Below, in pieces: positions 17,182-37,700 of a stretch of DNA of 64,000 nt. The position numbers were made by a program, and so were the translations under genes. The notes below the pieces were generated by a model. It had not been told where the DNA came from, searched no databases, and saw nothing but the letters and a program-made list of their open reading frames with translations. Position 1 is the first letter of the stretch. Each line of letters starts with the position of its first letter. This DNA comes from an uncultured Clostridia bacterium (GTDB lineage Bacteria; Bacillota; Clostridia; Oscillospirales; CAG-272): the NCBI GenBank assembly GCA_937894775.1, contig CALAXC010000153.1:17802-81801 (forward strand). The letters are read 5' to 3'.

Positions 17182-17213
17182 GTAAATTCACCACATTGGA
17201 GGTATTTTAAATC

Positions 17214-17639
17214 ATGGCAAAGAAAGTAATGGGCTATATTAAATTGCAGTTGCCCGCCGGAAAAGCAACTCCTCAGCCCCCTGTAGGTCCGGCACTTGGT
17301 CAGTACGGTGTAGCGATTCCCGTATTTACAAAAGAATTTAATGAAAGAACAAAGAATGATATGGGTCTTATCATCCCTGTAGTTATTACAGTATATGCAG
17401 ACCGTTCATTCACATTTATAACTAAGACTCCTCCTGCGCCTGTTCTTATAAAGAAGGCAGTAGGTATTGAGTCAGGATCTGCAAAGCCTAACAAGACAAA
17501 GGTAGCAAAGCTTACCAAAGAGCAGGTTCGTAAGATAGCAGAAACAAAGATGCCCGACCTTAACGCAGCAAGTATCGAGACCGCGATGAGCATGGTTGCA
17601 GGTACTGCACGTAGTATGGGCGTAGAAGTTGAAGACTAA
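17214..17639 (+). CDS. rplK: 50S ribosomal protein L11
   Basis: 141 aa, '[22 protein letters not shown]'. Confidence 0.95.
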
Positions 17640-17653
17640 GGAGGGTGCTGAAA

Positions 17654-18340
17654 ATGGGAAAGAAATATATTGACAGCGCAAAGCTTATTGAAAAATCAAA
17701 GGCGTATGACCCTTCTGAGGCATTAGAGCTTGTATGTAAGACCTCTAAGGCTAAGTTTGATGAAACTATAGAGATCCACATCCGTCTTGGCGTTGACTCA
17801 CGTCACGCAGATCAGCAGGTAAGAGGAGCTGTAGTTCTTCCTAACGGAACAGGTAAGAATGTAAAGGTGCTCGTATTTGCAAAGGGTGATAAGGTTCAGG
17901 CTGCTCTCGATGCAGGCGCAGATTACGCAGGCGGTGTAGAGTATGCAGATAAGATTGTTCAGGAAAACTGGTTCGATTTCGATGTTGTTGTTGCAAGCCC
18001 TGATATGATGGGTGTTATCGGTAAACTCGGTAAGGTTCTCGGTCCTAAGGGACTTATGCCTTCTCCTAAGGCAGGAACTGTTACTCCCGATGTTGCAAAG
18101 GCAGTAACTGAGGCTAAGGCGGGTAAGATCGAATACCGTCTTGATAAGACAAACATAATCCATTGCCCGATCGGAAAAGCATCGTTCGGTGTTGAAAAGC
18201 TCACAGAGAACTTTGATACTCTCGTTGGCGCAGTTATTAAGGCTAAGCCCGCTGCAGCAAAGGGTCAGTATATCAAGAGCTGTGTTATAGCAAGCACAAT
18301 GGGACCTGGTATCAAGATAAATCAGGCAAAACTTGGCTAA
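17654..18340 (+). CDS. rplA: 50S ribosomal protein L1
   Basis: AAGGAGGG at 17639-17646, then ATG 17654 ([11 protein letters not shown]...). Motifs '[13 protein letters not shown]' and '[19 protein letters not shown]'. Confidence 0.95.
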
Positions 18341-18352
18341 TATAGCTAAATT

Positions 18353-18415
18353 AAAAAGGACAAGATATTGTGGTGATCAGATATAGATCGGTCACACTTT
18401 AGCTTGTCCTTTTTG
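18353..18415 (+). terminator. Terminator-like long hairpin after rplA
   Basis: AGGACAAG (18357-18364) pairs with CTTGTCCT (18403-18410) and is followed by TTTT. The interior carries further short palindromes (GATC...GATC). Confidence 0.5.
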
Positions 18416-18472
18416 TTGTTTTATTAATAAAATGTTCTTTATTTATTTTATAGTTTTTAATATATAAAAGGG

Positions 18473-18501
18473 TTGACAAAGCAACTAAAAAAGTGTATAA
18501 T
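18473..18501 (+). promoter_or_regulatory. Sigma-A-type promoter for rny
   Basis: TTGACA (18473-18478), a 17-nt spacer, then TATAAT (18496-18501) with an extended -10 TG. Confidence 0.6.
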
Positions 18502-18602
18502 TAACGTGTATATATGTGTCATAATTTCGGTAGAGTACCGTATATGATATATCTATAATCTTTGAAAAATAAATAGAAAAAAAAGACAAGGAGGTGCAGA
18601 AA

Positions 18603-20168
18603 TTGGATTTGATTTATGCAATCTTGATGGCTGTCGCTGCTTTTGCGGTCGGTTCACTTGTTTTTGCTATAATCTTCCGTAAGGTTGGATACGATGCTCG
18701 CAAGCGTATTGCGGAATCGGAGATCGGCTCGGCAGAGGAAGAGGCAAAACGTATTCGTGAAGACGGTATGAAGCAGGCTGAAACCATGAAGAAAGAAGCC
18801 TTACTCAGCGCAAAAGAAGACATTCTTAAGCAACGAAATGAAGCTGAGAAAGAACTTAAAGAACGCAGAGCTGACATTTCAAGAACAGAGCGCCGTTTGG
18901 TTCAGAAGGAAGAAAATCTGGATAAAAAGGCAGAATCGCTTGAAAGTAAAAGCGAAATACTTGATCGTAAGATAAAGGAAAATGACGTTCTTAAGGAGCA
19001 GATAAACGAGCTTCGTGTAAAGGAACTCAATATTCTCGAAAGAATATCGGGATATTCCGCACAAGAGGCTAAGGATGAGTTGGTATCGCGTGTTGAATCG
19101 GAGATCAAACACGAATTGGCTCAAAGACTTGATGCTCTTGAAACACAGTTTAAGGAAGATGCTGATGCAAAGGCTAAGAACATAATTTCTCTTGCAATTC
19201 AGAGATGTGCCGCAGACCATGTGGCAGAAACGACGGTTTCGGTTGTATCGCTTCCAAGTGAGGATATGAAGGGACGAATCATAGGTAGAGAAGGTCGAAA
19301 TATCCAGATGCTTGAAAAGCTTACAGGTGTAGAGCTCATTATTGACGATACTCCCGAGGCGATAACTCTTTCGGGCTTTGATCCGGTCCGCAGAGAGATT
19401 GCCCGTATTACGCTTGAAAAATTGATCTCTGACGGAAGAATACATCCGTCGCGTATTGAAGAGATGGTTGAGAAAGCAACCCGTGAGGTTGAAACAGGAA
19501 TCAAGCAGGCGGGCGAGAGAGCAACCTTTGATGTAGGTATTCACGGAATAAATACCGATCTTGTAAGAATGCTCGGAAGACTTCGTTACAGAACAAGTTA
19601 CGGTCAAAACGTACTTAAACACTCTATAGAAGTTGCTCTTATTGCAGGAATGATAGCAGATGAACTTGGAGTTGACAGTACAGTAGCAAAACGTGCAGGT
19701 CTTTTGCACGATATCGGAAAAGCACAAACACACGAAATGGAAGGCTCACACGTTGAGCTTGGTGTAAATCTCGCAAAGAGATACAAAGAAAGCCGTGATG
19801 TAATTCACGCGATCGAGGCTCACCACGGAGATGTTGAACCTCAAACGATCACTGCTGTAATCGTTCAGGCGGCAGACGCCATATCGGCGGCAAGACCCGG
19901 AGCGAGAAGAGAGGATCTTGAAAATTATATTAAGCGTCTTGAAAAGATAGAAGAAATAGCTAAGGGCTTTTCGGGCGTTGATAAGGCATTTGCTGTTCAG
20001 GCAGGACGCGAAATACGCGTAATGGTAAAACCTGAAGAAGTAAATGATGACGGAATGAAGCTTATTGCCAGAGAGATGGCTGTTAAGATTCAGGAAGAAG
20101 TAAAATATCCCGGTCAGATAAAGATAAATATTATCAGAGAAAGCCGCGCGGTAGATTACGCAAAATAA
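18603..20168 (+). CDS. rny: Ribonuclease Y
   Basis: N-terminal TM, coiled coil, KH '[11 protein letters not shown]' and HD 'GLLHDIGK'. The track start GTG 18594 overlaps the AAGGAGG RBS (18588-18594). In-frame TTG 18603 sits 8 nt after it, so I prefer that start, which remains uncertain. Confidence 0.93.
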
Positions 20169-21861: not shown

Positions 21862-23556
21862 ATGAAGATGGTACTTAGTTTACTTTCAGTCGCAATACTT
21901 TTGATTGCGATATTTGAAATTATAATGGAAACGGTCAAGGCTGTTAATAAGGGCTTGAAAAAATCCCTTGTTACGTTAGCTTCAATTATGCTTTCTATAT
22001 TTTTGTCCTTGGTATTGACACAACCGGTGTCAAATCTTTTGGTAAACCCGATAGCAAATTTATTGAAAAAGCTTGTGAATCTTTCGGCGCTTGAGAATAC
22101 TGTTCCAAGCTTGCCGTTAGTGATTGGTGCTTATGCTGATGCATTGATATCACCGCTTATATTTTTGATATTATTCTTTTTGATCAGGGCGATAATCGCA
22201 ATCGTTGTTTTGATCGTTATGCGTTCGAGAGAAAAAAAGAAGATCGATACTAATAATTATGAAAACGAGGATGCTCCTGCGTTTAAGAAAAACCCCAAAG
22301 CCGCAAGCGGAGTAGTGGGATTTGTGTGCGGTATTTTGTTGATAACAACTTTTACAGCGCCTATTATGGGAACTCTTAAGGTCGCAGAAAAAACTTTTTC
22401 CGCAGTTAATAATAATTCCGATGTTTACGGAGCTAAGATCAATTCAAAAGCAGTTTCGGTTATCAAGCTTTTTTCAAAGGATATGATAGGAAACGCATTG
22501 TATTATTGCGGTGGAAACCTTATATACAAAGCAAGCGCTACGTCGATGCTTAACGATAATTATTTTCAGCTTGAAAATGAAGCCGTTCAAACGGTAAACA
22601 CGGCAGACGATCTTATGCTTGTTACGAGTATACTTGGAAATATAAATTCTTCAACAGAGGAGCAGAGAAACTCAATGAAGGTTCTCGGCAAGGAAATAAA
22701 TAAAGCAGAAACGCTTAAAACTGTTGCCGCGGATATAGTTCCGGAGCTCTCAAAAAATTGGCTTGACGGAAAACCTTACTTGGGTACTGATAAGCCTAAA
22801 TTCAATAAGATCTCGGAAAGCGTTTTTAATAAAATGCTTTATGTGTGTAAATCGAGTACTGTTGATACTGTAGGTGATGACCTTAATACTCTTTTGAATG
22901 TTTATATGATAGCATATGAGCATGATATGTTGGTTTCGGGAGATTATAAAACGGTAATTGAAACAGCCAGCAGAACCGGTGCTTTTGATCTCATAAGACA
23001 AGAACTGAGTAAAAACAGAAGAATGGCAGGTATTACTTTAGATATCGATACGATGTCGATACGTACAATAGCATCTGCAATTCAGTCCTTTAACTTGGAA
23101 AACTATGATATTCTTATGAATAACATAACTAATACGCTTAACGTTGCGCTCAAATATGAGGGCGAAGCAAGAAAGCAGTATATTACCGATCTTACAAGAC
23201 AGTATATTAATTCTTACGGAATCAATATTGGCGAGGCTGAAACTATTAAGTTGGCTGAAAAACTTAATGATGAAGTTATCGGCAATAGAAAGAGCGTGTC
23301 TATTGACGATGTTAGATCATTCTGGGATAAATATTCTGTGAAGAATAAGGATAATAATACTCAGGTACAGCAAACTCCCGTTATATCTGTACCCGATCAG
23401 ACGGTTGATGATACTGTTGAAGGAGAAACAGATTTGGACACAGAGAATGAAGGCGGAGAAGGTTATCCCGAAAATCCTGAGTCTTATGCGGATGGATATG
23501 TTGAGCCTGAAAACGGGCAGGAAAATATTGAAAACGAGTATAATAGCATCGCATAA
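21862..23556 (+). CDS. Polytopic membrane protein with ~390-aa soluble domain and acidic tail (N-terminal TM bundle weakly CvpA-like)
   Basis: 564 aa. About 5 hydrophobic segments in the first 180 aa. The C-terminal 60 aa is D/E/N/G-rich. Starts 17 nt after the preceding gene, with RBS AGGAG. Confidence 0.6.
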   Translation: MKMVLSLLSVAILLIAIFEIIMETVKAVNKGLKKSLVTLASIMLSIFLSLVLTQPVSNLLVNPIANLLKKLVNLSALENTVPSLPLVIGAYADALISPLIFLILFFLIRAIIAIVVLIVMRSREKKKIDTNNYENEDAPAFKKNPKAASGVVGFVCGILLITTFTAPIMGTLKVAEKTFSAVNNNSDVYGAKINSKAVSVIKLFSKDMIGNALYYCGGNLIYKASATSMLNDNYFQLENEAVQTVNTADDLMLVTSILGNINSSTEEQRNSMKVLGKEINKAETLKTVAADIVPELSKNWLDGKPYLGTDKPKFNKISESVFNKMLYVCKSSTVDTVGDDLNTLLNVYMIAYEHDMLVSGDYKTVIETASRTGAFDLIRQELSKNRRMAGITLDIDTMSIRTIASAIQSFNLENYDILMNNITNTLNVALKYEGEARKQYITDLTRQYINSYGINIGEAETIKLAEKLNDEVIGNRKSVSIDDVRSFWDKYSVKNKDNNTQVQQTPVISVPDQTVDDTVEGETDLDTENEGGEGYPENPESYADGYVEPENGQENIENEYNSIA

Positions 23557-23612
23557 TATTTTAAGCGTTGTAGACCCGAGTAAAAACTGTAAATGAAAAT
23601 GGCAGGTAAGAT

Positions 23613-24308
23613 ATGGAAATAATTATGGCTTATATAGCAAAGGGAATCGTACTTCTAATGAGTATGGTACTGTATGTATACCTCTTTTCAGCGGTAGTCC
23701 CTAAATTTATTATGAAGCTCAGATGCAAAGTAAATACGTGCGACAGAGGTATAAGAAAATATAAATATCCTGATGGAAGATGCGTTGTTTACGAACCTGA
23801 AATTTCTTTAAGAAAATATGTTGAAAGTTATGCACTTTACGTTCGTGACGGATATAAATACATTACTTGTAAGACAACAGAAAATGTAAAAGATATAAGA
23901 TACGAGGTCTATGCTTTTGATATAAACAATAAGCTTATAGACATTTTATCGGTACTTGAAACTGTGAATAACGGTTGCACACAGGAAGTTTCTATCCCCC
24001 CTGAAACATCGTATGTAAGATTGGTGCTCAGACGAGTTGATAATGAGTATTATTCAAGAAAGATAGTGGCAGAATACTCTGTTTTCAGTTATTGTTTGTG
24101 CGCTATAGTAGTTGCTGTAGCAACACTTGTAGAGTCTTTTATCGTTTATTTCTTGGCAAAAGATATTTTGATCAGCGGCTTAAGACTCAGAATGACTCTT
24201 ATAGGAGTCGGCGGTATGTTTTTTATGGCAATTTTGATATCTTTGATAGTAGCGGGACTTACTGTTCTTGCATATCGCAGAAACTGTAAAAAGGTGATAA
24301 ACAAATGA
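23613..24308 (+). CDS. Hypothetical membrane protein
   Basis: 231 aa: an N-terminal TM, a ~120-aa beta-rich domain, then 2-3 C-terminal TMs. Its stop overlaps the next start (ATGA at 24305). Confidence 0.55.
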   Translation: MEIIMAYIAKGIVLLMSMVLYVYLFSAVVPKFIMKLRCKVNTCDRGIRKYKYPDGRCVVYEPEISLRKYVESYALYVRDGYKYITCKTTENVKDIRYEVYAFDINNKLIDILSVLETVNNGCTQEVSIPPETSYVRLVLRRVDNEYYSRKIVAEYSVFSYCLCAIVVAVATLVESFIVYFLAKDILISGLRLRMTLIGVGGMFFMAILISLIVAGLTVLAYRRNCKKVINK

Positions 24309-24952
24309 AAAGAGATTTGCAAATTATATCGAAAGGTCTGTACGATAAACCCAATGAAGATTGTGCACTGATTGCAGCAAAACAGTATATTTTTGCAAGG
24401 CAAAAAGGAAGAAAGATCTTAATTGTAAGATTCGAAAACCTTTCTAACCATAGAATAGAAGATATGTCATTTTGGTTGGTTCAGTTGAATTCTGACGGTG
24501 TTGAGATATCGTCTAAAAAGATAACATTAAAAAGTATCGGCTGTGCACCAAGGGAAATTTTTTCTCCAAATAATTGTTTTTACGTAGATAATAAATGCGT
24601 GGATTTTGAGATCCGAATGATTTCTGTTACTTCGGGCGGCTTTGAATATTTATCAAAAAACGGAGAGGGATTTGTAAAATATCCTCTTGAGGAGAGCTGG
24701 TCATATGCTTCATCGCAAAGTGTTTCGGGATATAAATATTCTAAAATACAAAATAACAGAGTTAAATTTTCAAAAGCAATTTTGATATTGGCATTGTTTT
24801 TAATCGCTCTTGCGGTTATTTGGCCATTCTTTGCAAATACGTTGTGTCCCGCAATTGCAGATGTTCTGGATAGATTTTGGAAAATGGTTGCTGAGGATAC
24901 GAAGGAACTTTTCAGACGTATTGCAGAGTCATTCGAGAAGAAGAATGTTTAA
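24305..24952 (+). CDS. Hypothetical protein with C-terminal TM anchor
   Basis: 215 aa with a soluble ~155-aa domain, then the TM 'AILILALFLIALAVIWPFF'. AAGGTG RBS. Translationally coupled to the previous ORF. Confidence 0.55.
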   Translation: MKRDLQIISKGLYDKPNEDCALIAAKQYIFARQKGRKILIVRFENLSNHRIEDMSFWLVQLNSDGVEISSKKITLKSIGCAPREIFSPNNCFYVDNKCVDFEIRMISVTSGGFEYLSKNGEGFVKYPLEESWSYASSQSVSGYKYSKIQNNRVKFSKAILILALFLIALAVIWPFFANTLCPAIADVLDRFWKMVAEDTKELFRRIAESFEKKNV

Positions 24953-24972: not shown

Positions 24973-27900
24973 ATGTTAAAACATAAATTTATAGTTGATA
25001 AGCTTAGCGAAGCGCAAAAGATAACGCTTTTGTCTGACGTGAGAGTGCTTTCGACTGCGGAATATACTAAGTTTGGTATTCCAATGCTCAGTATTGAATC
25101 GATATACGGATATAAAACTGATGTTTATCCAAGTCCGATAAGTCTTGCGAATTCTTGGAATGAGAGAATAGTTGGCGAGGTCGCAAGTGATATCGCAGTT
25201 TCTATGTCCGCAGAACAAATAAATGTAGCGGGAATACTCAGCCCTATTCCAAAACTTAATATGACAGATAGAGCGATTTCGGAAGATCCGCTTCTTTCGG
25301 CAAAGATCTCATCTGCGTATATGGGCTCTATAGGAAAGACGGGAATAGCGGTAACACTTGATGATATTTTCTTTGATGAGCAGGATGTTTCTTGCTTGGA
25401 TCATACGCCAAACAGTAGATTTTTAAATGAATTTGTTTACAGAGCGGTATCTAATACAGTTGAAAATAAAAAATGTCATGCTGTAACGGTTGGAGCAGAT
25501 ATAGATATAAAAGGCTACGAAAATATAAACAGTGAGATCACCGAGAGAGTCGCAACTATCGGCGGTGAAAAATTCGTTTTGTGTAAGAATATCGCACCGG
25601 AAGATACGGTTATAAGAATCGTAAAGGGGCAGATATGCTTAGACGGCTGTGAGCCTGTTCTCAAAGCGGCTATCGATAGATATGCACGTTTGAAAGAGGG
25701 AATAAAGCGAGGCAGAGTTACGGTATGCGAGCTTGAAGCTGAGATAGAAAACGGAAGCGCTTTCCCACCTGAAAAGATAGATGAGGCGGTAGACAAGGTT
25801 ATAGATTTTGCTTTTGAAATGACAAATGCGAATAAAGGTAAGCTTGCTTCCTATACCCCTACTTCAACAGTGGTGAAAAATGCTGCTTATGAATCAACGG
25901 TCCTTTTGAAAAACTATAAAACAGTTTTGCCGTTAAAGCCGGGTACTCTTGTAACTTTGGCAGGAGATATATTGGTGAATTATAACGGAGAAGACGCGGA
26001 TTATTCGGATAAAGCAAATGAAGCTGCATATTATCTCAGAGGTCTTGGCTGTGCTTCTCAAGGATTTGTCCGTGCATATTCTATGGCAGAAGACAGAAGC
26101 GATAAGCTTTTTATGCAAATGGAAGGATCTGCGCTGAACACCGATACGGTAATTCTCTTTATGGGAACTAATCCCCAAAAAGAGAAGGCAATTACCAGAA
26201 CCGAGAATCTGTATCTCCCCGCAAATCAGCTTGCTGCCTTGGAGAAGCTTTATAAGATGGGTAAAAAGATAATCGCTGTAGTGTCAAGCGATTATGCAAT
26301 AGATGTTACTTTTGCAGACAAGGTTGACGCACTTTTGGTAGCTCCGTTGAATACAAAATATGGCGTTGAAGCGGTATTCGATATCATTACAGGCAGAATG
26401 GGCCCGGTAGGACGACTTGCGACAACTTGGTATAAAAATACAGATAGGGCAAATAAAAAACATAGATTTTATTGTTCAATGCCAAACTCAAAGGTCGGCA
26501 CTTATTTGGGTTACAGATATTATGATAAATCCGATTATGATGTGGGTTATCCTTTCGGATACGGATTGGCATTTTCAACCTTTGTTTATTCAAAGCTTTC
26601 GGTTCAGGGAACTAACGTTGTTTTCACCGTAAAGAATAAAGCTAAGGTTGCGGGAACCGAAGTAGTCCAAGTTTATTTAGGTATTAATAATTCAGCAATT
26701 CAACGACCTAAAAAGGAGCTTGTCGGATTTGAAAAGATATATCTTCAGCCGGGAGCTTCGACAACAGTTTCGATTCCTATGTCGAATATAGAAAGCTTTG
26801 ATCCCGAAAGTAAACGGTGGATTATGGAGCGTGGCGAATACACAGTATATGTAGGCTCTTCGGTTAAAGATATAAAGCTTACAGCGAAGGTGTCGCTTGG
26901 ACAGGATATTGTGAATTCTCCTGCGGAAGATCCGTCCGATTATTTACAGTCGGAAAGTAATATTATTTCAAACAGATACACATTGGAGGCAGATTATAAG
27001 CTTATGAAAAGGAATATTAGAAATATAGTATTTGGTATAGGCGCCCTTGTTTTGGCGGTGGCTATGTTTGTCTTCTCGATATTTTCGGGAAAGGTAAGTA
27101 TTTTCTTAAACGTTGTTGCGTCTATATTGGCTTTGGCGGGAGTGGTGTTCTTTATTTTGGAAGGTACTGACCGTAAAAAAGCGCATAACGAAGAAAGAAA
27201 CCGTGTAAATGAAGCGAATAAGGCTCATTTTGAAAATGCAACGGATATTGCAGATTTCTCTACAAATGCCGTATTTAGCGAGGAATTCGACAGAGTCGAG
27301 CAGAAGATATCTTTCACAAAAGATACGGCTCCCTCAAAGGCAGAAAGCTATCTTGCTTTTGTAAATGAGAGTCTTACATATGATGCAGCAATTTCTCAGT
27401 TTATTGCGTTTGCCGCTGCTAAAGGTTTTAAGTTTAATGAAAGCAACGCACGCGAGCTTTTTGCAGCTATGTCTGCATCAAGACTTATCATCACAAAGGG
27501 AATGTCTAATGACGTATTTGCCGAGCTTGTAAGAGTAGTAAGCGAATATTTTGGAACTCCTATGTTTGTGGATGCGGTTGATTATTCTTATGAAAATGAT
27601 AATTCCGCACTCTTTAAGGGGGTAGGTGCTGCAAAGCAGAGAACAAATCTCACCAATGCTATTTATGCGGCAATTGAAAGCTCCGATAAGGTTCATATTG
27701 CAGCGCTTACAGATGTTAATTTTGCAGATCTTTCAAAGTATTTTGTTCCGTTTGCAAGATATATTCGTAATCCACGTAATGCAAACATTATTTCTACGGT
27801 CGATCAGACAGGTGAAAAGACTCAGATCACGATGCCACAGAATATGTGGTTTATGCTTAATTTGAGAATGGGCGAGACCATGAGTAATATACCTGAATAT

Positions 27901-28350
27901 ATCACTGAGCTTGCTTCGGTTATAAAGGTGGATTATATAAGAACTGCTCCTACAATGCTTTATACGCAGATTGTTCCGTTTAGTTATTATCAGTTTGATT
28001 TCTTGCTTGATAAGGTGAAAACAAGATTTATTATTTCTGAGGATACTTGGAAGAAGTTTGACCGTTTTGAAGCTTTTGTAAACGGTGTTTCTCCATATGC
28101 TCTTGAAAATAGAGTATGTATAGCCGTTGAGAGATTTTTTGCAGTATTCTGTGCCGCAGGCGGAGATACGAATGAGGCGATCGACAGAGCTATCAGTGCA
28201 AGAATACTTTCTTCGGTGATTATAACGCTTAATAATGCCGAGGACAAGGAAAATAGAAATCTTACCGAAAAGCTTGAGATGATATTCGGCGAAGAAAACA
28301 TAGATGTTTGCCGAGCTTTCATCAGAGCGGCAGGATCAAATCTTATCTGA
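24973..28350 (+). CDS. Fusion protein: GH3-like domains (N-domain, alpha/beta sandwich, Fn3-like), a 2-TM hairpin, and a degenerate McrB-like AAA+ domain
   Basis: 1125 aa. GH3-type blocks: 'KLSEAQKITLLS', 'GIPMLS', 'ISEDPLL', 'STVLLKNYKTVLPL', 'GPVGRLATTWY', 'GYRYYDKSDYDVGYPFGYGLAFSTF', 'EVVQVYLG'. TMs at about nt 27024-27165. The C-terminal ~390 aa aligns colinearly with the neighbouring ATPases but has destroyed NTP motifs (see findings). Confidence 0.75.
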   Translation: MLKHKFIVDKLSEAQKITLLSDVRVLSTAEYTKFGIPMLSIESIYGYKTDVYPSPISLANSWNERIVGEVASDIAVSMSAEQINVAGILSPIPKLNMTDRAISEDPLLSAKISSAYMGSIGKTGIAVTLDDIFFDEQDVSCLDHTPNSRFLNEFVYRAVSNTVENKKCHAVTVGADIDIKGYENINSEITERVATIGGEKFVLCKNIAPEDTVIRIVKGQICLDGCEPVLKAAIDRYARLKEGIKRGRVTVCELEAEIENGSAFPPEKIDEAVDKVIDFAFEMTNANKGKLASYTPTSTVVKNAAYESTVLLKNYKTVLPLKPGTLVTLAGDILVNYNGEDADYSDKANEAAYYLRGLGCASQGFVRAYSMAEDRSDKLFMQMEGSALNTDTVILFMGTNPQKEKAITRTENLYLPANQLAALEKLYKMGKKIIAVVSSDYAIDVTFADKVDALLVAPLNTKYGVEAVFDIITGRMGPVGRLATTWYKNTDRANKKHRFYCSMPNSKVGTYLGYRYYDKSDYDVGYPFGYGLAFSTFVYSKLSVQGTNVVFTVKNKAKVAGTEVVQVYLGINNSAIQRPKKELVGFEKIYLQPGASTTVSIPMSNIESFDPESKRWIMERGEYTVYVGSSVKDIKLTAKVSLGQDIVNSPAEDPSDYLQSESNIISNRYTLEADYKLMKRNIRNIVFGIGALVLAVAMFVFSIFSGKVSIFLNVVASILALAGVVFFILEGTDRKKAHNEERNRVNEANKAHFENATDIADFSTNAVFSEEFDRVEQKISFTKDTAPSKAESYLAFVNESLTYDAAISQFIAFAAAKGFKFNESNARELFAAMSASRLIITKGMSNDVFAELVRVVSEYFGTPMFVDAVDYSYENDNSALFKGVGAAKQRTNLTNAIYAAIESSDKVHIAALTDVNFADLSKYFVPFARYIRNPRNANIISTVDQTGEKTQITMPQNMWFMLNLRMGETMSNIPEYITELASVIKVDYIRTAPTMLYTQIVPFSYYQFDFLLDKVKTRFIISEDTWKKFDRFEAFVNGVSPYALENRVCIAVERFFAVFCAAGGDTNEAIDRAISARILSSVIITLNNAEDKENRNLTEKLEMIFGEENIDVCRAFIRAAGSNLI

Positions 28351-28377: not shown

Positions 28378-29703
28378 ATGTTAGAATTAGCTCGCTGTTT
28401 TGGAGGAAAGGCATTAGCATTTGATAAAGAAGCTATGCTTGATATGTTTACCTCTGAAATTGCAATAATCATATATATTTTTATTATTCTTGCGATAGTT
28501 GCGGTTCTTGTTGTAGCGCTTATTTTCTTCCAGCGCAAAGATGAATCGGATGAGGAAAATATTGCACCTGACAATGCGGGTGCTCAAGCTCCAAACGATG
28601 ATGAGGTCGAGAAGGAAGAAACCACCGAGCGTTTTTGTATGTTGAGTGCGATCGACAGAAGAAGAAACAGCTATGGACACGTGAAGTACGCAACAAACGT
28701 AACGCTTGAAGATTTCTGTGAGAATTTCAGGAATTATGCGGCATACAGACACGGATTATACTATGATATAGAAGATATAAGAAGATTCATAGCAGGAATG
28801 TCAGTGTCACATATGCTTATATTACAGGGTATGTCGGGAACAGGTAAAACCTCGTTGGCACACGCGATAGGATCATTTGTTGATAATAGCTCAACGATAA
28901 TTCCCGTGCAGCCAATGTGGAAGGAAAGAACCGACCTTATAGGTTATTATAACGAATTTACAAGAAGATTTAACGAGACATTATTGCTTACAAAGATGTA
29001 TGAGGCAAATTATAGCAAAGACGTCTATGTAACGGTTCTCGATGAAATGAATATTGCAAGAGTAGAGTATTATTTTGCTGAATTTTTGTCTTTGCTCGAG
29101 CTTCCGAATCCTGAGGAAAGATACCTCGATGTAGTATCGGACAAATGGGAAAACGATCCCACTCAGCTCAAAGACGGAAGAATAAAGCTTCCTACAAATA
29201 TGTGGTTTGTGGGAACGGCAAATAATGACGACTCAACATTCCTTATATCGGATAAGGTTTATGACCGAGCAATGATACTTGACCTCGATCAGAAAACCGA
29301 AAGATTCGTAGCGCCGCCAACCGAAAAGATGATAATATCTGCAGAACAGTTCGACGCACTTGTAGTATCTGCGCAGAAGGAATATGAGATAAGCAGCCGA
29401 AACAAGAAGAGACTTGAAGCGTTCGATGAATATCTTATAGCGCATTTCCACGTAACGTTCGGAAACCGAATTATGAAGCAGATATTGACATATATCCCCG
29501 TATATATAGCATGCGGCGGAGAAGAGCTTTTTGCGCTTGACGATATACTTTCAAAGAAGGTAATAAGAAAGCTCGAATCACAGAATCCTATATACTTCAA
29601 GAATGCGGCAGACGGATTGATCGCGTATATGGACGATCTTTTTGGCGCAGAAAATATGACTCTCTGCAAGGAGCATATAAGAAGAATTTTGAGAAATGCT
29701 TAA
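28378..29703 (+). CDS. Membrane-anchored McrB-like AAA+ NTPase, copy A
   Basis: 441 aa. One TM (IAIIIYIFIILAIVAVLVVALIFF) and an acidic linker. Walker A 'GMSGTGKT' (28828-28851), Walker B 'VLDEMN' (29035-29052), and 'GTANNDDS' (NxxD-type, 29221-29232). 'PVQPMWKERTDLIGYY' and 'EYYFAEFLSLLE' parallel the McrB blocks 'QFHPSYSYEDFVEGY' and 'IFGELMMLIE' (from memory). Confidence 0.75.
   Translation: MLELARCFGGKALAFDKEAMLDMFTSEIAIIIYIFIILAIVAVLVVALIFFQRKDESDEENIAPDNAGAQAPNDDEVEKEETTERFCMLSAIDRRRNSYGHVKYATNVTLEDFCENFRNYAAYRHGLYYDIEDIRRFIAGMSVSHMLILQGMSGTGKTSLAHAIGSFVDNSSTIIPVQPMWKERTDLIGYYNEFTRRFNETLLLTKMYEANYSKDVYVTVLDEMNIARVEYYFAEFLSLLELPNPEERYLDVVSDKWENDPTQLKDGRIKLPTNMWFVGTANNDDSTFLISDKVYDRAMILDLDQKTERFVAPPTEKMIISAEQFDALVVSAQKEYEISSRNKKRLEAFDEYLIAHFHVTFGNRIMKQILTYIPVYIACGGEELFALDDILSKKVIRKLESQNPIYFKNAADGLIAYMDDLFGAENMTLCKEHIRRILRNA
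28624..29703 (+). repeat. 1080-bp direct repeat, copy 1 (ATPase core)
   Basis: Matches 31736-32815 at a constant offset of 3112 nt. Every stretch I compared by eye was identical. The + frame and two minus-frame track ORFs (29233-29451 = 32345-32563; 29289-29669 = 32401-32781) translate identically. Flanks diverge immediately (c vs t upstream; ttttta vs aaaaaa downstream). Confidence 0.9.
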
Positions 29704-29736
29704 TTTTTAAGATAAATTTTACAAAGGAAAATTTGT

Positions 29737-31428
29737 ATGAATCAATTGGATGTTTATTACAGAGCCCAGCTTGATTATAAAAATGCGATAGAGTCCGATA
29801 AAGAGTGCTCGAAATTAAACTCTGCGTTCCTTTCAGCTGATGCAGAAAGCGACCGTTTGGTAATAACAAGAGCGTTTTGCACGGTTGATGAAGAATGGGT
29901 TGCCGAGATAGAAAAGGGCTTGGTTTTTATAGAAAAAGCTATAAAAGAAGACCGTCAGTTTATTCTTTCTCAAGGCGAGGTAGTTCCGATAGAAAAGGTT
30001 AAGTCTGTGTCAAAGGAATCGGTGCAGCATCTTGCAAAGCACAGTGATCTTATAACCGAGTATGAAGAGGGAGAGGATATTATTCCCGATAAGCTTTATA
30101 CGGTTGAGAGATTAAACGATTATACCGTTTATGAGAACAGATTCCTTTATATGTTGCTTTGCTATCTTCGAGATTTTGTTTCGCTAAGATATACGAAGAT
30201 CGTTGAAGCAACAAATAAATATGATGCCAAGCTTTCGATCAACAAAGATTTTATGATTGGTAAGGAAACTATCTCTTATACCGTAAATATACATGACGTA
30301 AGACAGGATGATGAATATCTTAAGGAGCACAATACCGCAAAGGATATCATCGATAGAATAATGCTTATTCTTAAAGCGATACTTGCATTTTTGGCGACAC
30401 CTCTTATGGAATATCAGGCAAAAGTCCCAATGATAAAACCCCCTATAACCAAGACTAATGTTCTTAAAATGAATAATAATTTCAAGGGCGCAGTAGCACT
30501 TTATGATTATATTATTTCTTATGATAAACAAGGCTTTGAAATCGAAAATCAGGTCACAAATATATCTCCGTTTACAATCGAGATGGGCTCTGATTTTGCT
30601 TTGGCAGGTGGAATGATGACGTTTCTTTCTTATCAGTATGGTTTAGGACTTAAGAGTGAGCTTAAGGCTTCCTACGATAAAGAAGAAGAACGTCGCAAGG
30701 ATGAGCTTGTAAAGCGAAACAGAGAGCTTATTGCAGCGCTTGATAAGAGACTTCAAAGATCTGAGATAACTCATAGCGAATACATAATCAAGCTCGAAGA
30801 ACAGATAAAGCTCCTTGAAAAGCAGTGTGAACGTTTAGAGTTTATGCGCAAAGAGGTCGAGCGTCTTAAAACAAGTGAAAATAAGCTTTTGGCGGATATA
30901 AAGATATCTTATCTTGAAATATCTAAGCTCAAGAGTGATATGCTTTCTAAAGAACATGAGCATGCAGAGGCGGTCGAGCGCGTTCAAAGAGAGTGCTCCA
31001 ACAAAATGCTCGAAATGTCGCAGGCATTTAATCAGGAGAAGATAGAGGCTACCGCTTCGCTTGTGGCAGAGGTAAGCGGCTTGCAAAACAGAGTTGCTGA
31101 GTTGATTGAAAGCAACAGGGTTGAACGTGAGGAATCCAAGAAGGAACTTAATGCACTTCAGGAAGAATATGATAAGCTGATGCAGGATTTCAACGAGCTT
31201 CAGGAAACGAAACGTCTTATAAACGCAAGGCTCAGATCCTATCTTTTTAAGAACGGTGAAGTTCCCGCAGGTGAGGATAACACCGATAAAGAGAAATTTG
31301 ATGAACTTGAAAATGAACTTGAGGTATTTATTAAGTTCTATAAAAAAGAATGGAATAAAACCAAAAAGCGTATACGTAAGGAGCTTTTGAATATCAAAAA
31401 TATCAGAAAGCAGGATGAGCAGGAATGA
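29737..31428 (+). CDS. McrC-N-terminal-like (DUF2357-like) protein with ~200-aa C-terminal coiled coil; no nuclease motif seen
   Basis: 563 aa. 'YTVYENRFLYMLLCYL' resembles the ENR(F/L) block of McrC-family N-domains (recalled, not searched). Residues ~310-500 are heptad-like and E/K/L/Q-rich. It lies between the two McrB-like genes. Confidence 0.5.
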   Translation: MNQLDVYYRAQLDYKNAIESDKECSKLNSAFLSADAESDRLVITRAFCTVDEEWVAEIEKGLVFIEKAIKEDRQFILSQGEVVPIEKVKSVSKESVQHLAKHSDLITEYEEGEDIIPDKLYTVERLNDYTVYENRFLYMLLCYLRDFVSLRYTKIVEATNKYDAKLSINKDFMIGKETISYTVNIHDVRQDDEYLKEHNTAKDIIDRIMLILKAILAFLATPLMEYQAKVPMIKPPITKTNVLKMNNNFKGAVALYDYIISYDKQGFEIENQVTNISPFTIEMGSDFALAGGMMTFLSYQYGLGLKSELKASYDKEEERRKDELVKRNRELIAALDKRLQRSEITHSEYIIKLEEQIKLLEKQCERLEFMRKEVERLKTSENKLLADIKISYLEISKLKSDMLSKEHEHAEAVERVQRECSNKMLEMSQAFNQEKIEATASLVAEVSGLQNRVAELIESNRVEREESKKELNALQEEYDKLMQDFNELQETKRLINARLRSYLFKNGEVPAGEDNTDKEKFDELENELEVFIKFYKKEWNKTKKRIRKELLNIKNIRKQDEQE

Positions 31429-31444
31429 TGCTTGGGTGGAATAG

Positions 31445-32815
31445 ATGACGAAAAATGTTAAAAGAAATATAAAAAGAGTTATTTTACTTATCGTTTCTCT
31501 TGCGCTTGAGGGAATACTCGCATTTATGCTTATAGGCGGTATTGCAAATCACGGGCTTGCAGAATCTAAAGTAATAACGCTTATAATAATTCTTATGCTT
31601 ATGATACCGCTTGCTTTGTTGGCACTTTTGTTTGTTGTTTCTTTTAGAAAAAAGCAACAAGCAAAAGTATCCAAAAGGCAAGAGACCGATAAAAAAACGG
31701 GTAAGAAGAAAAAGAAAAACGAAGATAACGGTGATACCGAGCGTTTTTGTATGTTGAGTGCGATCGACAGAAGAAGAAACAGCTATGGACACGTGAAGTA
31801 CGCAACAAACGTAACGCTTGAAGATTTCTGTGAGAATTTCAGGAATTATGCGGCATACAGACACGGATTATACTATGATATAGAAGATATAAGAAGATTC
31901 ATAGCAGGAATGTCAGTGTCACATATGCTTATATTACAGGGTATGTCGGGAACAGGTAAAACCTCGTTGGCACACGCGATAGGATCATTTGTTGATAATA
32001 GCTCAACGATAATTCCCGTGCAGCCAATGTGGAAGGAAAGAACCGACCTTATAGGTTATTATAACGAATTTACAAGAAGATTTAACGAGACATTATTGCT
32101 TACAAAGATGTATGAGGCAAATTATAGCAAAGACGTCTATGTAACGGTTCTCGATGAAATGAATATTGCAAGAGTAGAGTATTATTTTGCTGAATTTTTG
32201 TCTTTGCTCGAGCTTCCGAATCCTGAGGAAAGATACCTCGATGTAGTATCGGACAAATGGGAAAACGATCCCACTCAGCTCAAAGACGGAAGAATAAAGC
32301 TTCCTACAAATATGTGGTTTGTGGGAACGGCAAATAATGACGACTCAACATTCCTTATATCGGATAAGGTTTATGACCGAGCAATGATACTTGACCTCGA
32401 TCAGAAAACCGAAAGATTCGTAGCGCCGCCAACCGAAAAGATGATAATATCTGCAGAACAGTTCGACGCACTTGTAGTATCTGCGCAGAAGGAATATGAG
32501 ATAAGCAGCCGAAACAAGAAGAGACTTGAAGCGTTCGATGAATATCTTATAGCGCATTTCCACGTAACGTTCGGAAACCGAATTATGAAGCAGATATTGA
32601 CATATATCCCCGTATATATAGCATGCGGCGGAGAAGAGCTTTTTGCGCTTGACGATATACTTTCAAAGAAGGTAATAAGAAAGCTCGAATCACAGAATCC
32701 TATATACTTCAAGAATGCGGCAGACGGATTGATCGCGTATATGGACGATCTTTTTGGCGCAGAAAATATGACTCTCTGCAAGGAGCATATAAGAAGAATT
32801 TTGAGAAATGCTTAA
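31445..32815 (+). CDS. Membrane-anchored McrB-like AAA+ NTPase, copy B
   Basis: 456 aa with a 2-TM hairpin N-terminus and a Lys-rich linker. From 'TERFCMLSAIDRR' to the C-terminus the protein is identical to copy A (359 aa). Confidence 0.75.
   Translation: MTKNVKRNIKRVILLIVSLALEGILAFMLIGGIANHGLAESKVITLIIILMLMIPLALLALLFVVSFRKKQQAKVSKRQETDKKTGKKKKKNEDNGDTERFCMLSAIDRRRNSYGHVKYATNVTLEDFCENFRNYAAYRHGLYYDIEDIRRFIAGMSVSHMLILQGMSGTGKTSLAHAIGSFVDNSSTIIPVQPMWKERTDLIGYYNEFTRRFNETLLLTKMYEANYSKDVYVTVLDEMNIARVEYYFAEFLSLLELPNPEERYLDVVSDKWENDPTQLKDGRIKLPTNMWFVGTANNDDSTFLISDKVYDRAMILDLDQKTERFVAPPTEKMIISAEQFDALVVSAQKEYEISSRNKKRLEAFDEYLIAHFHVTFGNRIMKQILTYIPVYIACGGEELFALDDILSKKVIRKLESQNPIYFKNAADGLIAYMDDLFGAENMTLCKEHIRRILRNA
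31736..32815 (+). repeat. 1080-bp direct repeat, copy 2 (ATPase core)
   Basis: See copy 1. Confidence 0.9.
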
Positions 32816-32842: not shown

Positions 32843-34738
32843 ATGTTTAAAGATAGTAAATATGTAAAGTTAATATGCATAGTCTTGGTTTTTTCTGCTT
32901 TGGCGTTGGCACTTTCGATGGGGATTTTAGCTATCAGCGCTTTGCGGAATGAAACTTTTGCTGATCCGCTTGACGGTTATCAGGAAAACCTCGAGAAAGA
33001 AACGGTGACCCTTCCGCCTCCTGTTCCCCCTGACGGACCCGATCCTGACGACGATCCGGACGGAGATAATACAAGCCCGTATCAAGTGTATTCCGATCAA
33101 GCTGTAGATGCTCTCTATTTGAGGGGGGAGGCTTTTGGAAATTATAACGGAAAAGGATGGGATGAGGCAGTTCCGTATACAAATTTGATAGATGATAAAT
33201 ATCCTGCAACCTATCTTGGAAGTTTGATGATAGAAGAGTGGAGCCGAGCTTGGGGCATGTCTCCGATAGCTCTTTCTATAAAGCCGAATGATGCTGAAAT
33301 GATCATACCTTCCTATACGGCAACATCGGAATATGTTGCAGATCTTATGGGAACAACGGATTATAAAGAAGAGTATTTAATTCCGGAAGATGATGTTACG
33401 GCAAATCCAAAGAGCTCAGAAATTTACCGTATGCATTATTATAATTACACAAATGTCAGCAAGAAAAAGGAAACTCCTACCACTTATGCACTCTATGAAA
33501 GGGTATACCGCGACTTTGTATATGACCATTATCTTTATGTAGATGATACAACAAAGTCCTATATGCTTGATATTATAGATAAGCAAAAGTTTGATTTTTA
33601 TGATCAGAATGTTGCTCAGAATATTTCGGATTATGTTTCCGGATTAGGCGAATATCTCATTACTTATGATCAAGCCCTTGATCAAGAGGAAAATATGGTT
33701 ATTGCCTTTATTGAAAAATATAAAGCAGGAACGTGTAAGCATTTTGCAAGTACTGCCACACTTATTTTCAGATCAATGGGAATTCCCGCAAGATATGTTA
33801 CGGGATATATGACAGCAACAGAAGCGGGAGAATGGGTGCAGCTCGATAATTTCAATTCACACGCTTGGGTAGAAATATATGTTGACGGCTTTGGCTGGAA
33901 AACGGTAGAGGTAACACCCGCACAGCAAAAAGATCCTATAGAGATAAAGCCTGTTGATGTTAAGAAAAAATTTGACGGAACTCCGATTTTCCCTGAATAT
34001 AAGATAGAAGGCTTTGAAGAGTACGAAAAGCTTGGATATACTTATGAGGTGGTTATAAGCGGAGAACGTACCGAACCGGGTGTGTCTGAAAGTATTATTG
34101 AAGATATAAAGATATTCGATTCCAATAAAACTGAAGTAACAGATAATTTTCTATTTGAAAAAAAGCCGGGAAAAATTATTGTTCTTGTTAGCGGAGTTGT
34201 TTTGAGGAGCGAGTCGATATCTCAGGTATATGACGGAATTCCGAGGACTTCGGATCTTTCAAAATGCAGTATAGATTTTGAAGATGGTGCAAAGCTTTTG
34301 GAAGGACATACTATCAGAATGGAAGCGAGATTACTTGAGACTAAGATAGGTGTTCATTCGCATGCATTTGATGTTATTGTGGAAGACAGTGAAGGTAATA
34401 ATGTTACGGATGTGTATCTTTTCTCGTATGATTTAGGTAAATATGAAATATCTCCGATATCTATAACCATTAAAGCGGGAAGCGCTGAACAAGAATATCT
34501 TCCTGGAAAGATACTTACTTGTGATCAGTATGAAATAACATCAGGAAAGCTTATGGAAGGTGATTATATTCCCGATGATATAGTTATTACCAAAGGAGAG
34601 CAAAAGGTACCGGGAAGAAGTCCTAACACAATAGATCGTAGTAAAATAGTTATTTTAAATTCCGAGGGTGAAGATGTTTCGTCTAACTATGTAATTCGTA
34701 CAGAGGTTGGAGAGTTACGTCTTTATGAAAGTGAATAA
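32843..34738 (+). CDS. N-terminally anchored transglutaminase-core protein with C-terminal YDG-type repeats
   Basis: 631 aa. Signal-anchor 'LICIVLVFSALALALSMGILAI' and a Pro/Asp-rich linker. TGase core 'GTCKHFASTATLIFRSMGIPARYVTGY...HAWVEIYVDGFGWKTVEVTP'. The C-terminal ~260 aa holds repeats containing 'YDG' and 'EGH'. Confidence 0.75.
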   Translation: MFKDSKYVKLICIVLVFSALALALSMGILAISALRNETFADPLDGYQENLEKETVTLPPPVPPDGPDPDDDPDGDNTSPYQVYSDQAVDALYLRGEAFGNYNGKGWDEAVPYTNLIDDKYPATYLGSLMIEEWSRAWGMSPIALSIKPNDAEMIIPSYTATSEYVADLMGTTDYKEEYLIPEDDVTANPKSSEIYRMHYYNYTNVSKKKETPTTYALYERVYRDFVYDHYLYVDDTTKSYMLDIIDKQKFDFYDQNVAQNISDYVSGLGEYLITYDQALDQEENMVIAFIEKYKAGTCKHFASTATLIFRSMGIPARYVTGYMTATEAGEWVQLDNFNSHAWVEIYVDGFGWKTVEVTPAQQKDPIEIKPVDVKKKFDGTPIFPEYKIEGFEEYEKLGYTYEVVISGERTEPGVSESIIEDIKIFDSNKTEVTDNFLFEKKPGKIIVLVSGVVLRSESISQVYDGIPRTSDLSKCSIDFEDGAKLLEGHTIRMEARLLETKIGVHSHAFDVIVEDSEGNNVTDVYLFSYDLGKYEISPISITIKAGSAEQEYLPGKILTCDQYEITSGKLMEGDYIPDDIVITKGEQKVPGRSPNTIDRSKIVILNSEGEDVSSNYVIRTEVGELRLYESE

Positions 34739-34756
34739 TAAGTAAAGGGTGGTATA

Positions 34757-37700
34757 ATGTTATACGATAGCTACCATAAAAAAATATCGAAGGTCGTTGA
34801 TGTTTTACGCAAGGTATTTAAGCACATAGTCCTGATCAGCATTGTTTTAGGACTTTTGCTTGCGTTTCTCATTACTTTTATGGTTACAAAGGGAATGATT
34901 ATTGACGATAAAAATGTGTCTAATAAATTCGCTGTAACTTACGGAGAAGACCTTCCATTGAAGACGAGCGCTATGTTCGCTTCACATAAATATCAATATT
35001 CCGAAAACGGAAGAAAATGGAGCGATGCTTTTCCGTCAGAACCGGGAACATACCGGGTCAGGGCAGTTGCTAAAGGAATATTCGGAAATGAGAGATACGG
35101 AAAGATCTATACTTTTGTTTTAAAAGCAAAGGAAATTGATGTTTCTGTAGTCGAAGATGAAATTATATATGGAGAACTTCCAACGGTTGAAGCTAAGCTT
35201 TCTTATGAAGATACTATCAGCTGTGACGGTTTTGTTTATGAAGACCGCTTTTCGGCAAGCACTAAGGTAACTCCGAATGCAGAGGACATTACGATTCTTA
35301 ATAAAGACGGTGAAGATGTTACCTCTTCTTATGAGATAAACGTTGAAAGTACCGACATCAACGTGCTTCAAAGAGAAATTCTGGTTACTGTATCCGATCA
35401 GTCAATGATATATAATGATGTAAAGTTTAGTTATGACGGATACGAATTAAGTAACGGAACTTTAGCCGACGGTGATACTATTCAGGCGGTATTTGATAAG
35501 TATCTTATAGATGTAGGTGAGATCGAGAATACCCCCCAGCTTAAGGTCGTTACATCAGACGGTTTTGATATTTCAATGCATTATTCTATCCAAACACAGA
35601 TAGGTAAGCTTAAAGTTGACTACCGTCCGTTGATAATTAAAACGCCAAGTGCTGAAAAGGTATATGATGCAAACGCTCTTTCAAATTCCGAGTACGAGAT
35701 AGTAGGGGAATACGGTCTTGTTGAAGGACATACGATGATCTGTATTTCCAACACTTCTATAACGGACGTTGATGAGGTTGAGAACGTTCTTGATTTTGAG
35801 ATCAAGAATGCGGCAGGAGAAGATAAGACTCCTAACTATTCTTTCTTCTATGAAAGAGGAATGCTTAAAGTAACCGAAAGACCTCTTAATGTTTCGTTTG
35901 TGAGTGGAACTTGGATGTATGATAACAAGTGGCATAAGGGTGAAATAAAGCTTGAAGGCCTTTGCGAAGGACATAAAGCGACTTATGATATACCGAGTAT
36001 AATCGATACAGGTAAGATAGAAAACTCTACCGAGATAACCGAGATTTATGATGCTCACGGAAAAGATGTTTTCTTGAATTATGATATCATTTACGGTGAT
36101 TTCGGTACTCTTGAAGTTACAAAACGTCCGATAACTATTACTACTGAGAGTCAGACTTTGACTTATGACGGTGTTATCAGAGTTTTTGATAAGTATGAAA
36201 TTACATCTGAAATAAAGCTTGCTGACGGTGAAGAGCTTCAGCTTACCTTTAACGAGTTCTACAAGGCAGGAACTTATGACAATAATATTGTTTCTGCTAT
36301 GATAAACTACAGCCGAACAGGTACAGGCGTTCCGGATGAAAACGGTTGGTATCAGGTAGGCAGCAGTGGAGTTGCCGATGCTGCTCAAAACTATGAGATA
36401 ACTGAGGTAATAGGAAAGATAATTATTAATAAGTGTCCGATTACTTTGCGTCCTGTTGATATAGCGCATGTGTATGACGGTACGTTGATTGTTCCTACTG
36501 AATTCGATATCGTTTCGGGAGAGCTTCCTCCAAGTCATACTATATATCCCGAGTATATAGGTTCACTTACCGATGCGGGAGAAATAGATACGGATATAGA
36601 TCTTACAAAGACTATAGTTAAAGTGCTTCGTGATGACGGTTCGGAAGAAGATGCTACCGAGAACTTTGAGATCACAGTTCAAAAGGGTAAGATCACTATC
36701 AGTAAAAGACAGATCACCGTTAGAACCGAAACAGTTGAAAAGATATACGATGGAACTCCGTTATCAAGTAATAATTGGGAGATCGTAAGCGAAACACAGC
36801 TTGTTGAAACTCATACGCTTAATCTTGAATGTAATGTTTCAAGAATTTATCCAGGTGAAAGTGATAATCTTGTAGATCTTGATTCTGTCACGATCGTTGA
36901 TGAAAATGAAAATGACGTTCTTAAGAATTATGAGATAACTTACGAGTACGGTAAGCTTATAGTACATAAGCGACCGATAACTATTGTTGCTTCAAGTGCG
37001 AGAAAGACCTATGATGGAACACCTCTTGTTTCTACAGAATATTCTATCTTGGATGCTGATTTAGAGGATTACGGATTATTGGAAGGTCATACCCTCAAGG
37101 CAACGACAAGCGGTTCTATAACCAACAAGGGTGAGACCTCAAATAAGATCGATATCGATAAAGTGAGAATACGTAATGCTTCAAATAAAAACGAAACAGA
37201 GTATTATGAAATTACTTGTTCTGACGGAACACTTACTATTGATCCGATAATTGTCAATATCACTACTTCGTCTGTAAATAAAATCTATGACGGTACCTCT
37301 ATAAATCCTAAGATCGATACCGTAGTCGATTCGGATATCGAAGAGAAAATCATTGCGGGACACACTTATTCGATCACAGTAGCGGATAAGGAGCTTATAA
37401 ATGTAAAAGATTCTCCGCTGGAAAATGAAGCGATTTTGGTAGTTTACGATGAAAAAGGTGCAGATATGACTGCACTTGGAAATTATGAGGTAAACGGAAC
37501 TTGGGGAAGTATTATTATTCTTCCCAGAGTTATTAAAATACTTCCTAAACCATCAGTAACGAGTAAGGTTTATGACGGAAATCCGTTGACTTGTACCGAT
37601 TATGAGGATATTTCAAATGCTGAATTAAACGAAGGACTCCTCAGCAATCATTTGCTGGAGCAAATAGAATTTAATTCTCAAACAGATGCAACTGATTTCT

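Follow-up and report, generated by a model that had tools for sequence, protein, structure and literature searches.

The DNA considered here is a stretch of 64,000 nucleotides (nt) from an uncultured Clostridia bacterium (contig CALAXC010000153.1, positions 17,802 to 81,801), called the window below and numbered from its first letter. It encodes two ATPase genes, A and B, which have different N-terminal membrane anchors, share an AAA+ core that is identical down to the last base, and flank the gene of a partner protein with a domain resembling the N-terminal domain of McrC. The elements that carry the argument are these:

28378 to 29703, plus strand: ATPase gene A, 441 amino acids
28378 to 28623, plus strand: A-type N-terminal anchor and acidic linker, 82 amino acids with one hydrophobic helix, outside the repeat
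28624 to 29703, plus strand: repeat copy A, the AAA+ core of ATPase gene A, 359 codons and the stop codon
29704 to 31735, plus strand: spacer between the copies, unique, 2032 nt, containing the partner gene and the B anchor
29737 to 31428, plus strand: partner gene 'mid', 563 amino acids, with a DUF2357 (McrC N-terminal-like) domain ahead of a long coiled coil
31445 to 32815, plus strand: ATPase gene B, 456 amino acids
31445 to 31735, plus strand: B-type N-terminal anchor and lysine-rich linker, 97 amino acids forming a two-helix hairpin, outside the repeat
31736 to 32815, plus strand: repeat copy B, the AAA+ core of ATPase gene B

A preliminary description of this DNA had reported a perfect repeat of 1080 bp at an offset of 3112 nt, and an exact alignment agrees at every one of the 1080 positions, the offset between 28624-29703 and 31736-32815 being constant. 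The identical run cannot be extended by even one base on its 5' or its 3' side, and the flanks of the two copies, taken over 50-400 nt on each side, are 27-38% identical, the level of unrelated sequence, as had also been claimed. The repeat starts with the codons ACC GAG CGT TTT (T-E-R-F) at the junction of linker and core, and ends with the last base of the TAA stop codon in both genes; both of these borders had been placed correctly. A chance origin for a 1080-nt match is impossible, and no other repeat of 60 nt or more, direct or inverted, exists within the window. As a mechanical by-product of the repeat, the minus-strand open reading frames at 29289-29669 and 32401-32781 are identical, with 126 amino acids each. 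The second minus-strand pair spans the 5' border of the repeat, and its members differ in length, 112 versus 126 amino acids.

How old is the duplication that gave rise to A and B? Scanning a collection with one genome for each species gave at least 572 loci that encode relatives, and 78 of these were fetched (loci and contigs used for comparison are numbered with an L below). The comparison set consists of 28 genomes, namely the window and 27 GTDB species representatives with both copies on one contig. The taxonomic labels of metagenome-assembled genomes (MAGs) are those given by the submitters. An order of five genes, a fusion of a GH3-like part with a dead ATPase domain, gene A, the partner gene, gene B and a transglutaminase gene, is found on a single contig in 27 other species, so that the GH3 fusion 5' of gene A and the transglutaminase genes 3' of gene B are kept along with the pair. 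Both copies are also present, with 16 mismatches, on a 400-kb contig of a cultured isolate, Anaerocaecibacter muris CLA-AA-M11 (L044). The A and B anchors show no relation to one another, but across genomes each of the 56 anchors finds its best match in one of its own type, A with A and B with B (Mann-Whitney p=8e-165). A anchors have one hydrophobic segment in 27 of the 28 genomes, and B anchors have two in 24 of the 28 and three in the other four. Because anchors of the same type are orthologous and the one-helix and two-helix architectures have been kept, the duplication must predate these species. It is an old duplication, and the anchors have since become two distinct types, each of them conserved.

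The cores, by comparison, are young. Core DNA of A and B is 93.8-100% identical in 26 of the 28 genomes, exactly 100% in 10 and at least 99.4% in 19, and the core proteins are 98.9-100% identical in 26 of the 28. Between genomes the core DNA has a median identity of 64% and the core protein one of 65.7% (range 59-93%), and 52 of the 56 cores have the partner from their own genome as nearest neighbour. At four-fold degenerate sites the two copies are 0.81-1.0 identical within genomes, while between genomes the median is 0.37 and the highest value 0.69; since these sites too have been homogenised, selection at the level of the protein is not the cause. Codon differences between A and B, summed over the genomes, comprise 186 that are synonymous and 15 that are non-synonymous, from which it follows that purifying selection acts on both copies. 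An old duplication with young cores in every genome is concerted evolution by definition.

The process has left marks on a short time-scale as well. Among the repeat of the window and three B copies from the same species there are 17 variable sites, all of them third codon positions. Both window copies carry the derived allele, as judged against two outgroup species, at positions 729 and 990 of the repeat, and these shared derived alleles place homogenisation on the time-scale of within-species polymorphism.

Two genomes of related species, L066 and L073, show what happens when homogenisation covers less of the core. The central 600 nt or so of the core are 97-99% identical within each genome and 85% between the two, whereas for the 90 nt at the start and roughly 400 nt at the end the within-genome identity is 44-68%, versus 58-80% between orthologues; the centre of the core groups by genome and its flanks group by position. 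The C-terminal third of the cores has diverged between A and B in these loci (L066:6221-11071 and L073:6015-11074), whose B anchors are about twice as long, at 204-206 amino acids with three hydrophobic segments. Block-wise discordance of this kind is what a conversion tract that has shrunk would leave, and it exposes the old paralogy underneath. In other genomes the tract borders, set by BLAST, vary: on the 5' side the tract reaches 0-117 nt beyond the core into the linker, and on the 3' side it usually stops only a few bases from the stop codon, though in occasional genomes as much as 107 nt past it. The few mismatches between A and B cluster near the 5' edge in several genomes. Pooled over genomes, mismatches are commoner toward both edges, a trend that carries little weight as a few genomes dominate it.

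Can the second copy be trusted? Independent assembly graphs of the same species branch exactly at the repeat borders. Three ENA metagenome contigs (L001-L003; 98.5-98.7% identity) open with the final 55 or 75 nt of copy A, which are followed by the spacer, copy B and the transglutaminase genes. These contigs encode the 456-amino-acid protein B unchanged, in strains with 6-8 nt differences in the core. In another, independent sample, a Logan contig (L082; 99.2% identity) consists of the 2032-nt spacer with exactly 30 nt (k-1) of repeat on either side. These same-species graphs join the spacer to the repeat on both sides, and at least two copies are therefore needed. The repeat also accounts for a systematic fragmentation of short-read assemblies at the operon: database contigs with the partner gene are mostly 2.0-2.3 kb long, and there are stand-alone contigs of 3.1-3.3 kb, about one repeat period, that read 'core tail, partner gene, core' (L007, L030, L055, L064, L050). 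Gene A is probably cut at the repeat in short-read assemblies of the window species, and the comparison with other strains was accordingly made on copy B; an exact look-up of protein A returned no record, and a metagenome scan with a codon-degenerate pattern across the junction of anchor A and core found nothing.

What, then, keeps the two cores alike? Given the exact repeat, the old duplication, the contrast within and between genomes, the mosaics and the purifying selection, all of them observed, we hold it to be very likely that the tandem McrB-like AAA+ paralogues flanking the McrC-like partner have been subject to long-running gene conversion limited to one domain. The preliminary description had left three readings side by side, a recent duplication, gene conversion and an assembly artefact; gene conversion is now strongly supported, and a recent duplication and a false one are rejected. 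The absence of any mismatch in 1080 nt and the sharp borders are what one would expect of a tandem duplication so recent in this strain that there was too little time for divergence. However, 27 other species, with 59-93% identity in the core protein, share the two-gene layout, the mutually unrelated anchors are orthologous by position in every one of the 56 cases, the core flanks of L066 and L073 group by position, and a fresh duplication would copy the flanks or leave a chimeric junction rather than stop at a domain border, so that we give this explanation almost no credence. An assembly artefact, in which the second copy is false or two slightly different copies have been given one consensus, has in its favour that short reads cannot span an exact repeat of 1080 nt, and that layouts typical of an unresolved graph occur in several MAGs, either 'core tail, mid, core' (L007, L030, L055, L064) or 'up, core, transglutaminase' (L009, L011, L022, L054, L059). 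A false duplication is at odds with the recurrence of the layout on single contigs from different assemblers with 1-68 mismatches that distinguish the A and B cores, with its presence in the isolate genome L044, and with the same-species graphs that need two copies or more; as for consensus smoothing, a possible loss of a handful of single-nucleotide polymorphisms in the window would leave the conclusion unchanged. We consider an artefact unlikely. Could strong purifying selection alone, with no exchange of DNA, keep the proteins alike? The overwhelmingly synonymous character of the differences between copies, 186 versus 15, and the constancy of protein B across strains with nucleotide differences in the core speak for it. 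It fails to explain why four-fold sites stay alike within genomes when they are near saturation between species, why a core protein that differs by about 35% between species, and so is free to change, does not do so between copies, or why the mosaic of L066 and L073 runs in blocks; selection of this kind as the whole answer is extremely improbable.

The harder question is whether conversion serves a purpose. Conversion becomes more frequent as the identity and the proximity of the copies increase, and it may be that here it is real but neutral, a self-sustaining by-product of two long, close and similar direct repeats. The tract borders vary by lineage, by up to about 120 nt on the 5' side and about 100 nt on the 3' side, which fits limits of homology and not of function; one lineage, that of L066 and L073, has let the C-terminal third diverge and has kept the cassette; and the MAG L070 seems to do without gene A. 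Against neutrality, persistence of the pair in dozens of species, despite the risk of a crossover that deletes the partner gene, suggests that the two-copy state is selected, though this is not decisive. Nor is the published finding that prokaryotic genes which evolve in concert mostly encode members of one complex (Wang & Chen 2018, PMC6053082, a survey of 682 species in which 26 such genes were detected). We regard neutral conversion as a realistic account, to which we incline somewhat less than halfway. The persistence of identity may be a neutral effect of proximity and similarity, or it may be favoured by a shared ring and a shared partner; the L066/L073 lineage means in either case that identity over the full length is not obligatory.

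In the mechanism that we propose for the preferred reading, gene conversion between the cores of A and B, the cores would be homogenised repeatedly by non-crossover homologous recombination between the direct repeats, in an exchange that would be intrachromosomal or between sister chromatids and presumably RecA-dependent. The homogenised tract would be confined by the limits of homology, which are the linker on the 5' side and the stop codon on the 3' side. Products of crossover, from which the partner gene and the B anchor are deleted, would be selected against. Identical cores would be useful if, by an analogy taken up below, subunits of both kinds join in a single ring about their common partner. 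Unequal crossing-over was considered as the homogenising process and set aside by reasoning: with two copies, a crossover restores the parental end segments and does not spread a mutation. Several points weigh against conversion as we describe it. Conversion is read from a pattern in sequences, and its enzymology is assumed; the zero-mismatch state of the window and of other MAGs at 100% is possibly somewhat overstated, one edge of an assembly graph having been traversed twice; and identity reaches the last base of the 3' homology in most genomes, where models of double-ended conversion expect some erosion. The co-assembly rationale, for its part, has to contend with the C-terminal third of L066 and L073, which diverges in a cassette that is retained.

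If the repeats recombine, one might expect to meet the products of crossover. The preliminary description held that recombination between the copies could delete the intervening gene or amplify the unit. A layout of the deletion type is present in five MAGs, indistinguishable from the skipping of a loop by the assembler, and no three-copy (amplified) allele was seen among the fetched loci. The five, L009, L011, L022, L054 and L059, have the GH3 fusion, a single anchored core and a transglutaminase gene, with no partner gene and no B anchor; their single cores lie as follows:

about 10001 to 11074 in L009, L011, L054 and L059: single-core match
6893 to 7963 in L022: single-core match

This single-core layout is expected from a crossover between the repeats and equally from an assembler that skips the loop of repeat and spacer. 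A different arrangement is found in L070, a MAG of Candidatus Borkfalkia stercoripullorum, where the GH3/dead-ATPase gene (4629-7883), the partner gene (7926-9677) and gene B (9674-11074) follow one another with no gene A; the segment L070:4629-11074 is possibly a form of the cassette that naturally has one copy.

How does the locus compare with other cases of concerted evolution? Conversion of the tuf genes, whose copies are scattered, takes in their entire length, whereas the copies described here are 3.1 kb apart in direct orientation in one operon, with a partner gene between them, and a single domain is homogenised while the anchors stay distinct. As with tufA/tufB and the 26 genes of the survey, ancient paralogues are closer within a genome than orthologues are between species, silent sites included, the pattern recurs across species, and it is ascribed to gene conversion. 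The ATPase gene is absent from the 26 listed (PMC6053082). To a phenomenon already known, concerted evolution through gene conversion, the locus adds a new and unusually clean example that is limited to one domain and lies in a widespread operon of gut Clostridia. Protein-coding paralogues of prokaryotes are considered to evolve in concert over long periods only rarely, and this is a clear case in a large and mostly uncultured clade. Its useful traits are the homogenisation of one domain, the distinct and conserved anchors, the sandwiched partner, and a natural lineage, L066/L073, in which the tract has shrunk; with all of these it can be tested whether selection favours conversion in co-assembling subunits. 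In practical terms, the repeat breaks short-read assemblies of these gut bacteria at the operon, and MAGs can seem to be without the partner gene.

The nature of the ATPases has to be read from weak similarities. The shared core matches Pfam AAA_5 (7e-7). Its sequence relatives among solved structures are McrB proteins only, the best, in a phmmer search, being E. coli McrB (6hz4; E=8.5e-4, residues 51-238), itself a weak match. The Walker A (GMSGTGKTS) and Walker B (LDEMN) motifs of the core align with the GxxGxGKT and DExN of McrB, and its invariant NNDD aligns with McrB's NTAD and can be read as N-x-x-D or as N-x-D. An AlphaFold2 model of the core (pLDDT 75) gave Foldseek matches to RavA (2.9e-5), MCM (1.3e-4) and the McrB of T. 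gammatolerans (2.8e-4); all three being matched about equally, the modelled fold would assign the ATPase only to the RavA/MCM/McrB clade of AAA+ proteins. A MoxR-type AAA+ identity was considered, a homologue being named 'MoxR-like ATPase' in one source, and was rejected: the core matches AAA_5 and not Pfam AAA_3, a VWA protein is absent from the cassette, and the RavA match holds at the level of the clade only. No DNA-binding N-terminal domain was found on A or B, which have instead the transmembrane anchors of 82 and 97 amino acids with their charged linkers.

For the partner protein, the N-terminal 340 residues match DUF2357 with 26.0 bits (cut-off 23.3; E=6.7e-6, residues 57-162), a score obtained once the coiled-coil tail had been removed, and 16 of 27 partner orthologues match the same family. 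DUF2357 is the N-terminal domain of McrC (Bell et al. 2024, PMC11090510). The C-terminal half matches coiled-coil proteins and families only, with no nuclease family detected. Against PDB sequences, a profile of the whole partner found coiled-coil noise only (apolipoproteins, for example), and one of the N-terminal part found no significant match. The N-terminal domain was modelled with AlphaFold2 at a pLDDT of 77.7, the conserved segment 74-127 being of low confidence, and Foldseek of this model against the PDB gave nothing below E=0.07, and hence no structural link to McrC.

The upstream fusion and the other neighbours are as follows:

24973 to 28350, plus strand: GH3/dead-ATPase fusion, 1125 amino acids, with GH3-like and Fn3-like parts, a hydrophobic hairpin and, at 27100-28347, a degenerate McrB-like domain
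32843 to 39784, plus strand: two transglutaminase-core genes, 631 and 1675 amino acids, membrane-anchored, Transglut_core 3.1e-19
21862 to 24952, plus strand: three upstream membrane-protein genes, 564, 231 and 215 amino acids, with hydrophobic segments

The degenerate domain of the fusion (27100-28347) is a third ATPase paralogue, one that has not been homogenised with the cores of A and B. It had been described earlier as a dead and highly diverged domain, and this is borne out by an identity of 24% to the core (E=3e-19) and by the loss of the motifs: Walker A has gone from GMSGTGKTS to GMSNDVFAE, Walker B from LDEMN to LTDVN, and NNDD has been lost.

Is the cassette then an McrBC system? 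Like McrBC, it has an AAA_5 core for which E. coli McrB is the top sequence match among solved structures, with the Walker A and Walker B motifs aligned and an NNDD that may correspond to the N-x-x-D motif, and a next gene with DUF2357. Unlike McrBC, it has membrane anchors in place of McrB's DNA-binding N-terminus, a coiled coil in its partner in place of the PD-(D/E)xK nuclease of McrC, two paralogues that are active to judge by their motifs plus a degenerate one, and transglutaminase-core membrane proteins as neighbours. Because the two defining features, the DNA-binding N-terminus and the nuclease, fail, the cassette is on its sequences McrBC-like and not a member of McrBC. E. coli McrB occurs in a long and a short form, McrB-L and McrB-S, made from one gene by an internal translation start, which share a GTPase core and both act with McrC. 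In the cassette too there are two products with an identical NTPase core, different N-termini and the same partner, a functional analogy that is speculative, and here two genes, with cores kept identical by conversion, take the place of one. Another system for comparison is CoCoPALM, in which an McrB-like GTPase with an FtsB-like fusion has neighbours of the signal-peptidase family (Bell et al. 2024, PMC11090510). The fusion of an McrB-like GTPase to a transmembrane segment and the coiled coil on the McrC homologue are shared with the cassette; none of the cassette proteins matches FtsB/DivIC or signal peptidase, and this sets the two systems apart as far as the brief description in that paper goes. 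A literature search (McrB with transglutaminase; CoCoPALM) found no description of the cassette. The locus points to a widespread, membrane-anchored and nuclease-free McrBC-like cassette, with more than 570 loci in one genome-per-species collection.

What might such a cassette do? A tentative suggestion, which we put forward as doubtful, is that A with its single helix and B with its hairpin, perhaps together with the degenerate paralogue, would form one membrane-tethered McrB-like ring around the DUF2357 partner. Identity of the cores would then be selected, with conversion keeping the ring interfaces and the contacts with the partner compatible, and a nuclease-free derivative of McrBC would have become an envelope machine that couples NTP hydrolysis in the cytoplasm to giant extracellular transglutaminase-core proteins, in mostly uncultured gut Clostridia.

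The remaining genes of the cassette fit an arrangement as one operon, which is indicated by the short intergenic gaps and the Shine-Dalgarno sequences; that of gene A, AAGGAGA, lies upstream of its ATG. The upstream fusion matches Pfam Glyco_hydro_3_C (1.5e-23) and an Fn3-like family (9.9e-21). Its GH3-like part (24973-27100) has no signal peptide, and the match to the catalytic N-terminal domain is faint, at E=0.0077 and below the cut-off; this part may be a non-catalytic, cytoplasmic sugar-binding module. The two transglutaminase-core proteins, in a gene assignment with which the gene table of L001 concurs, both carry an N-terminal hydrophobic segment. In tblastn comparisons they (32843-39784) match each other and themselves at many offsets with 23-36% identity, which indicates long arrays of repeated domains around the predicted catalytic core, and versions in related species are up to about 3000 amino acids long. 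The three membrane proteins further upstream have no Pfam match, and by tblastn their genes are also found 5' of the GH3 fusion in L006, L009, L011 and others.

Mobile elements were considered as the origin of the cassette and rejected, phage and plasmid collections holding distant homologues only, with 29-40% identity. Such homologues of the core are carried by 285 plasmids (161 from Klebsiella) and by two faecal contigs labelled as phage. The one plasmid inspected, from Rhodoferax antarcticus (NZ_CP019242.1; L083:3624-7813), has a 40%-identical AAA gene followed by an annotated DUF2357 gene, with a macro-domain gene nearby, and this pair looks like a soluble, possibly defence-type relative. 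PADLOC gave one partial match, to the candidate family PDC-M26A (1.5e-45, in two stretches), and none for the other cassette proteins; a literature search found no mention of PDC-M26, and the match is not taken as evidence of a role in defence.

Elsewhere in the window, the region 16001-20000 has a markedly positive AT skew (+0.13) and a GC content of 0.42, above that of its surroundings. A bacterial large signal recognition particle RNA (168 bits) lies at 61943-62208, and it is the only Rfam family of the window at the gathering threshold.

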